This document shows, piece by piece, positions 25,336 to 25,585 of a stretch of DNA of 42,771 nt. The first letter of the stretch is position 1; every line of letters starts with the position of its first letter. The notes beneath the pieces were generated by a model. The model saw only the letters and a program-made list of their open reading frames with translations. It did no database searches and was not told the origin of the DNA. The stretch comes from a virus (Duplodnaviria; Heunggongvirae; Uroviricota; Caudoviricetes): IMG/VR virus record IMGVR_UViG_2563366830_000018. One strand, written 5' to 3'. A program made the translations under genes and the position numbers.

Positions 25336-25412
25336 CTGGCGCGTTGTACTGGATTCGAACCAGTGACCGATTGCTTAGAAGGCAATTGCTCTGTCCGGTT
25401 GAGCTAACAACG
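25336..25412 (-). tRNA. tRNA-Arg (anticodon UCU), argO/argU-like
   Basis: Hand-folded cloverleaf: acceptor GCGTTGT/ACAACGC, anticodon stem ATTGC/GCAAT, loop CTTCTAA, T-arm ACTGG-TTCGAAT-CCAGT, encoded CCA. Confidence 0.8.
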
Positions 25413-25425
25413 CAGGGTACAGATA

Positions 25426-25502
25426 ATGGACCACCATCGAGGACTCGAACCCCGCGCAACCAGCTTCGAAGGCTGGTGCTCTATCCTGATGAGCTAATGG
25501 CG
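25426..25502 (-). tRNA. tRNA-Arg (anticodon UCG), argN-like
   Basis: Hand-folded cloverleaf: anticodon stem CCAGC/GCTGG, loop CTTCGAA, T-arm CGGGG-TTCGAGT-CCTCG, encoded CCA; exact 5' end uncertain. Confidence 0.7.
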
Positions 25503-25509
25503 GTATGTG

Positions 25510-25585
25510 ATGGTGGCCCTTGCTGGATTTGAACCAGCGACCTGGCGATTATGAGTCGCTCGCTCTCACCACTGAGCTAAAGGGC
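25510..25585 (-). tRNA. tRNA with CAU anticodon, most likely tRNA-Ile2 (ileZ/ileX-like) rather than Met
   Basis: 76-nt cloverleaf GGCCCTT...AAGGGCC-A-CCA with anticodon loop CTCATAA, resembling recalled E. coli ileX. Confidence 0.75.

Follow-up and report, generated by a model that had tools for sequence, protein, structure and literature searches.

A three-tRNA cluster of the ileZ-argN-argO type beside an unoccupied toxin slot in a lambda-like prophage of Escherichia coli

Why should a prophage that has no Shiga toxin genes carry the tRNA cluster of the Shiga toxin (Stx) phages? The cluster consists of three genes that we call ileZ, argN and argO after the GenBank record of the Stx2 phage 933W (NC_000924); these names, and the idea that the tRNAs serve rare codons, reportedly go back to the 933W genome paper. 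The trio is a well-known and very common prophage module, and its existence is already established, although our full-text literature searches on ileZ, argN and argO returned nothing usable. Here we analyze the trio in a viral sequence of 42,771 nucleotides (IMG/VR record IMGVR_UViG_2563366830_000018), referred to below as the window, in which the tRNA genes are followed by a junction that 933W fills with stx2AB. We conclude that the trio is probably a functional ileZ-argN-argO module, decoding AUA, CGA/CGG and AGA/AGG in a non-toxigenic prophage whose toxin slot is empty.

ARAGORN calls three tRNA genes and no more in the window, and each is encoded by the minus strand. In the direction of transcription their anticodons are CAU, UCG and UCU, the composition and order of ileZ-argN-argO. 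The ileZ homologue, of tRNA-Ile2 type with anticodon CAU (25511..25586), scores 72.5 bits against the Rfam tRNA model; the argN homologue, a tRNA-Arg with anticodon UCG and a private C70U substitution (25427..25503), scores 53.9 bits; and the argO homologue, a tRNA-Arg with anticodon UCU (25337..25413), scores 70.1 bits. The gathering score of the model is 29 bits, and the corresponding E-values of 4e-14, 6e-9 and 2e-13 are far beyond chance. All three genes encode the 3' CCA. The lowest score of the trio belongs to the UCG tRNA, whose acceptor end (C1-G72 and U73) is unusual. A preliminary description of this DNA, made by folding the letters by hand, had placed three cloverleafs with these anticodons at 25336-25585. 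Both predictors recover them; the span moves by one base, to 25337-25586, and the strand, which had been left unstated, is minus. We regard the trio as real and functional-looking.

The identity of the CAU tRNA deserves attention, since ARAGORN labels it Met. Alignment to host genes points elsewhere: the gene matches K-12 ileX, a lysidine-modified tRNA-Ile2, at 68 of 76 positions (89.5%) and metT at only 52 of 77 (67.5%). It shares with ileX the acceptor-stem pairs C4-G69 and C5-G68, where metT has U4-A69 and A5-U68; these two pairs are described as determinants for TilS. The sequence features of a tRNA-Ile2 are present, among them a normal G1-C72 pair and A37, A38 and A73, and those of tRNA-Met are lacking. 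Because its 1-72 pair is normal, this is not an initiator tRNA. In related genomes the NCBI pipeline PGAP annotates this gene as tRNA-Ile; on these annotations and the alignments we reject a Met identity. By sequence, then, the CAU tRNA is a tRNA-Ile2 of the lysidine type, which would receive lysidine and be charged with isoleucine. Its anticodon loop is identical to that of ileX, and the loop of the UCU tRNA is identical to that of host argU. Outside the loops the host genes differ: ileX has G27·U43 where the phage tRNA has A27·C43, and argU agrees with the UCU tRNA at only 55 of 77 positions (71%). The earlier assignment of the trio to AUA, CGA/CGG and AGA/AGG is borne out as far as the anticodons and the Ile2-type identity go; the base modifications that such reading requires are presumed.

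Where does the cluster lie? The late antiterminator gene Q (27632..28003, minus strand) matches Pfam PF06530 over its full length (E=1.3e-47). It is followed on the same strand by a 214-aa ORF of low GC content (39.5%; 26939..27583) and by a region containing the late promoter pR', a short leader RNA and the tR' terminators (26730..26857), recognized by its homology to 933W and to PhiR49_2 (PV340570), an isolated non-Stx lambdoid phage. The homologous stretch, 26857..26785, corresponds to the pR'/qut/terminator region of 933W and to the DNA just past Q in PhiR49_2, and a terminator scan finds a terminator at 26751..26730. The 214-aa ORF has only marginal WYL-domain matches (Pfam E=0.01, PADLOC E=0.001). 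Between the tR' terminator and the tRNAs, also on the minus strand, are a TrmB-like ORF of 65 aa and an accessory gene of low GC content (43.8%) for a 237-aa AraC-family regulator (25615..26328; Pfam HTH_AraC). This YdeO/GadX-like protein matches the NCBIfam YdeO model over its full length with 108 bits, which is under the equivalog cut-off; it may resemble the prophage-borne acid-resistance regulators described in EHEC. AUA and AGG are frequent in the gene, which has 5 AUA and 6 AGA/AGG codons in 236. It ends 29 nt upstream of the tRNAs and stands at the same place in the Stx2k phage phiSTEC1575-Stx2k (OQ243220).

Downstream of the tRNAs, the minus strand encodes a P21-type holin S of 71 aa with the dual start MKSM (24681..24896; Pfam PF04971, E=8.6e-36), followed by a DUF1327 gene, lysozyme, Rz, and then the terminase and structural genes. 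The preliminary description had put the cluster in the same place as that of the Stx phages. The matches to PF06530, PF04971 and lysozyme and the pR' homology bear this out, with the trio situated past Q and pR'-tR' and ahead of holin S and the lysis cassette. This is thus an ordinary lambda-like prophage of E. coli, with the cluster inside its late operon. Two features elsewhere in the window may be recorded here. One long frame at 16420-18378 (minus strand), judged from its translation, is an apparent fusion of a ClpP-like prohead protease and the major capsid protein. At 33503-33691, also on the minus strand, Rfam reports two adjacent RNAs, a C4 antisense RNA (81.4 bits) and isrK (62.2 bits), with an Ant/Rha-like frame downstream of the pair; the arrangement resembles an antirepressor control module of the P1/P7 style, here carried by a lambdoid prophage.

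The tRNAs appear to have a transcription unit of their own. A consensus scan finds a promoter-like site, TTGATT-17-TATTAT, at 25597..25625 (minus strand), the equivalent of the putative tRNA promoter pT that the 933W GenBank record gives at the same position. The DNA upstream of the tRNAs is unrelated between 933W and PhiR49_2 on one side and the window and the Stx2k group on the other. Nevertheless, each of the five contexts that we compared retains a TATTAT -10 element at 10-15 nt ahead of the first tRNA, itself preceded at 17 nt by a -35-like hexamer. In the Stx2a phage of strain Sakai, a transcription start for the tRNAs has been mapped experimentally (PMC7547250). By this analogy the site in the window is probably an active promoter for the trio. 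Past the UCU tRNA an intrinsic terminator, GGCTCGCTTTTGCGGGCC followed by a T-run (25295..25322, minus strand), is identified by terminator scan, by alignment and by the 933W annotation: it is homologous to the 933W terminator annotated as 'upstream of the stx genes'.

Just past this terminator the window and 933W part company. The blastn alignment to the ileZ-argN-argO locus begins 4 nt ahead of ileZ and stops exactly where the terminator ends (window 25590..25299), with 93.5% identity over 294 nt. The cluster is thus homologous to that of 933W, as its proposed likeness to the Stx-phage cluster would have it, and the homology takes in the terminator as well. It resumes at window 25294..25049, which corresponds to the DNA just past stxB2, with 69.8% identity. 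The breakpoints are sharp: window 25299 corresponds to position 2409 of the 933W locus and window 25294 to position 3745. In a MAFFT alignment, likewise, the window is interrupted by a single gap, 1,330 columns long, which is the stx2AB cassette (~1.33 kb). At this junction the window reads ...GCGGGCCTTTTTTTAAATGTCTCACAATTCAG, whereas 933W reads ...GCGGGCCTTTTTT, then the cassette (ATATCTGCG...stx2AB...GTGTAATC), then TGTGTCACAATTCAG. The site of stx2AB in 933W is therefore present in the window as an unoccupied cargo slot at 25295..25299 (minus strand).

Nor is the toxin present elsewhere. A tblastn search of the whole window with StxA2 and StxB2 gave a best E-value of 0.45, and a blastn search of the whole window with the entire 933W cassette at word size 7 gave no match at E<=1. 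The preliminary description had claimed that toxin genes are absent, a claim that stx remnants in the flanking DNA would have overturned; none were found. In an Stx-converting phage, stxA and stxB lie past the tRNA terminator and before the sRNA/lysis region; this prophage has neither there. It is a non-toxigenic sibling of the Stx phages.

What fills the gap between the tRNAs and the holin? It had been described as about 440 bp of non-coding DNA. The distance is right, 440 nt from the end of the UCU tRNA at 25337 to the holin ATG at 24896, but the gap is not featureless. It contains the gene for a 200-nt sRNA of the STnc100 family (RF02076) at 25062..25261 on the minus strand. The match reaches 128.9 bits, where the gathering score is 47, and spans the full model (1-206), which places the RNA in the family. 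The gene has its own terminator, a GC-rich hairpin at 25073-25097 with a T-run at 25068-25072. The 933W copy scores 207.7 bits, is 69.8% identical to that of the window and starts 75 nt past stxB2; the position of STnc100 relative to the tRNA terminator and the lysis genes is the same in the window, 933W and PhiR49_2. STnc100 has been reported 75 nt downstream of the stx2 operon (2025 report, PMC12370729), and a 2026 preprint relates it to the prophage sRNA PasD. In 933W a second sRNA, AsxR (RF02703), is encoded convergently beside STnc100. No Rfam match to AsxR was found in the window even at E<=1, and alignment indicates that only the position of its hairpin is kept: a terminator-like hairpin at 25034..25061 (plus strand; terminator scan), convergent with STnc100, lies where the AsxR terminator lies in 933W. 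A different small antisense-side transcript may end there.

The empty junction is common. A 264-nt query that joins the UCU tRNA to STnc100 across the terminator was found in 1,038 of 5,426 complete E. coli genomes, about a fifth; most of the 1,038 are commensal or extraintestinal isolates from humans. For 933W, the junction of argO with stx2A was found in 599 of the same 5,426, so that among complete E. coli genomes the stx-less junction is commoner than the one occupied by stx2. A longer query of 741 nt (the tRNAs, STnc100 and the start of the holin gene), counted when at least 80% was covered in one piece, was found in 648 of the 5,426. For IMG/VR we drew a convenience sample consisting of the first 120 contigs with an exact 3' half of the UCU tRNA. 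Past that tRNA, 62 of these contigs lead directly into STnc100, with the slot unoccupied; 17 carry stx; 18 carry other cargo before STnc100; 16 have neither within reach; and in 7 the downstream DNA is too short. The full CAU-UCG-UCU trio is present in 98 of the 118 sampled contigs with enough upstream DNA, and 10 of the 118 clusters do not have the UCG tRNA.

The other cargos are unrelated to stx. They include a TerB-domain protein (PF05099), a 108-aa ORF without a Pfam match and a 74-aa ORF (sampled loci L044, L081, L116 and L118). Their borders are alike nonetheless. On the left, past the T-run of the terminator, the first 11 bases of the stx2 cargo and of the TerB cargo are almost alike, ATATCTGCGCC and GTATCTGCGCC (RTATCYGCGCC). 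On the right, just before STnc100, the sequence TTTTTAAAT-NN-CTCACAATTCAG is common to the empty, TerB and 108-aa ORF alleles. One TerB-bearing contig matches the left flank of the window at 38 of 38 bases and resumes after ~750 nt, with a 4-base overlap of T residues. Because of this flank match and T overlap, the empty allele could be either an insertion target or a deletion product between two T-runs. Unrelated cargos (stx2AB, the TerB-domain gene, the 108-aa ORF or nothing) may enter and leave at the same few bases. If a specific mechanism of insertion or deletion acts at the T-runs, the empty allele would be a landing pad that shows how stx was captured.

The tRNAs themselves are conserved to different degrees. 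Compared with 933W, the CAU tRNA is identical at 76 of 76 positions (100%), the UCG tRNA at 72 of 77 (93.5%) and the UCU tRNA at 75 of 77 (97.4%). Compared with PhiR49_2, the UCU tRNA agrees at 77 of 77 and the UCG tRNA at 76 of 77, the sole difference being position 70. The CAU tRNA is 100% identical in four phages that are otherwise mosaic in their flanks. Relative to ileX the 6:67 pair of the CAU tRNA is altered on both sides, and in the UCG tRNA both partners of the 26:44 pair differ between the two alleles (A26-U44 here, G26-C44 in 933W argN). Such compensated changes indicate that the structure of these tRNAs has been under selection.

Position 70 of the UCG tRNA is an exception. The base is T in the window (25433) and C in every relative, which turns the G3-C70 pair into G3·U70. 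An exact copy of this U70 tRNA occurs in none of the 5,426 E. coli genomes, the 50,697 phage records or the GTDB species representatives. IMG/VR has no independent occurrence either; its single match, in the prophage contig IMGVR_UViG_2563366829_000018, begins within STnc100, agrees with window 25203-28223 at 100% and thus represents the same source sequence. Alanyl-tRNA synthetase recognizes its substrates chiefly by a G3·U70 pair. The private pair could therefore let that enzyme charge an arginine-decoding tRNA, although C1-G72, C2-G71 and U73, which the UCG tRNA also has, should weaken alanine charging. The C70U change may instead be a neutral mutation or a sequencing error. Given the lowest score of the trio, the odd acceptor end and C70U, the UCG tRNA of the window could be impaired or altered.

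Do the genes of the prophage use the codons that the trio is expected to read? We counted the five cognate codons (AUA, AGA, AGG, CGA and CGG) in 44 window genes comprising 11,115 codons. The gene set was curated by hand; automatic greedy ORF picking mis-called the portal region. The cognate codons make up 35.3 per 1000 in all window genes and 10.5 per 1000 in a comparison set of 42 annotated genes from K-12 positions 100-150 kb (odds ratio 3.4, p=1e-42), a contrast that is overstated because that stretch of K-12 is rich in housekeeping genes. Genome-wide, the five codons sum to roughly 16-17 per 1000 in K-12, against which the window genes are enriched about 2-fold. For the three accessory genes that separate Q from the tRNAs the figure is 68 per 1000, close to the 69 per 1000 of stx2AB in 933W. 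Among single codons, CGG is enriched most strongly in the structural genes, at 13.8 versus 3.5 per 1000. The codon-usage check that the preliminary description had proposed thus finds the cognate rare codons enriched in the prophage genes. This fits the classical role of such tRNAs in supplementing the host supply and does not prove it.

A simple sequence of events would account for these observations. The trio is probably made as one short precursor, starting at the pT-equivalent promoter immediately upstream and ending at the terminator past the third tRNA. Following induction, RNA polymerase modified by Q and coming from pR' probably transcribes the trio as well. Maturation and charging would fall to the host enzymes RNase P, TilS, IleRS and ArgRS, and the CAU tRNA would read AUA once modified with lysidine. 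The result would be added decoding capacity for AUA, CGA/CGG and AGA/AGG, codons that the host reads poorly and that turn up at several-fold higher frequency in the genes of the prophage, above all in the accessory genes beside the cluster. In general, phage-borne tRNAs may or may not be of measurable help to temperate coliphages, and other accounts of the trio must be weighed.

One such account holds that the tRNAs serve mainly as replacements for, or decoys of, host tRNAs attacked by host anticodon nucleases or colicin D, so that translation continues while the phage grows, and that codon matching is secondary. Two of the three are tRNA-Arg, the target that colicin D cuts, and to our knowledge K-12 has no tRNA gene with a UCG anticodon at all; the cluster is also kept across very different prophage backbones. 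Yet the CAU and UCU anticodon loops, identical to those of ileX and argU, give no sign of changes that would escape a nuclease, codon enrichment fits a simpler explanation, and nothing beside the cluster suggests a nuclease or defence context. (A defence function for the neighbouring genes was considered and set aside, as PADLOC returned only marginal WYL and SWIM matches.) We judge the decoy role quite improbable. The same holds for the idea that the cluster is a passive passenger without present function, kept between conserved and recombination-prone late modules. Module boundaries do coincide with mosaic breakpoints 4-14 nt upstream of the first tRNA, and the absence of the UCG tRNA from some sampled clusters and the private substitution in the window copy point the same way. 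A passenger, however, would hardly preserve the CAU tRNA perfectly while its flanks diverge to 70% or are replaced, nor would it be expected to keep compensated stems, the -10 element and encoded CCA ends; even the private U70 still pairs, as G·U. A functional decoding module remains our preferred reading of the trio.

A further question is whether the slot was once full. Were the prophage a former Stx phage from which stx had been deleted, the site would be a scar and not a slot that was never occupied. Cargo loss is mechanically plausible, though not for stx specifically: the empty junction (CCTTTTTTTAAAT...) is the expected product of deletion between the T-runs that flank the TerB-type cargo in sibling prophages. 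Against this history, the window has no stx-derived sequence, and an STnc100 gene only 69.8% identical to that of 933W means that the flank was not recently derived from that phage type. The same junction recurs in the 1,038 genomes, for the most part human commensal or extraintestinal isolates, and the closest occupied relatives of the flank carry TerB or the 108-aa ORF, not stx. Past loss of stx is thus most improbable. We also think it improbable that a bolder reading will hold, in which the junction of tRNA terminator and STnc100 is a defined cargo slot as opposed to a generic mosaic boundary and, separately, the U70 tRNA-Arg can be charged by AlaRS.

These results bear on how the trio is understood. 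Often described as a feature of Shiga toxin phages, it belongs as a module to E. coli lambdoid prophages in general and occurs more often without the toxin than with it. Caution is therefore due in taking these tRNAs or STnc100 as markers for Stx phages. The window in turn offers a clean reference allele of the unoccupied toxin slot, useful for reconstructing the acquisition of stx and of other accessory genes.

Three phages place the window among its relatives. Phage 933W shares with it the anticodons and their order, the terminator, the position between Q/pR'-tR' and S, and the promoter-like element. It differs in having stx2AB past the terminator, a first tRNA spacer of 9 nt rather than 7, the tR' region rather than an AraC-like gene upstream of the tRNAs, and a UCG tRNA (argN) with G26-C44 and without U70, where the window has A26-U44 and its private U70. 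PhiR49_2 corresponds on the downstream side: the block from the tRNAs through STnc100, holin, DUF1327 and lysozyme to Rz has 98.5% identity, and neither the empty slot nor the spacers differ. Upstream, a methylase remnant stands where the window has the TrmB-like and AraC-like genes; pR' follows Q by ~20 nt, whereas the 214-aa ORF is inserted between them in the window; and the UCG tRNA has C70. The upstream side finds its counterpart in phiSTEC1575-Stx2k, with 92.5% identity across a block of 1.5 kb that takes in the TrmB-like gene, the AraC-like gene, the trio and the terminator. There the slot is occupied by the A and B genes of stx2k, and past them come a divergent STnc100 (64.9 bits) and an iraM-like gene.
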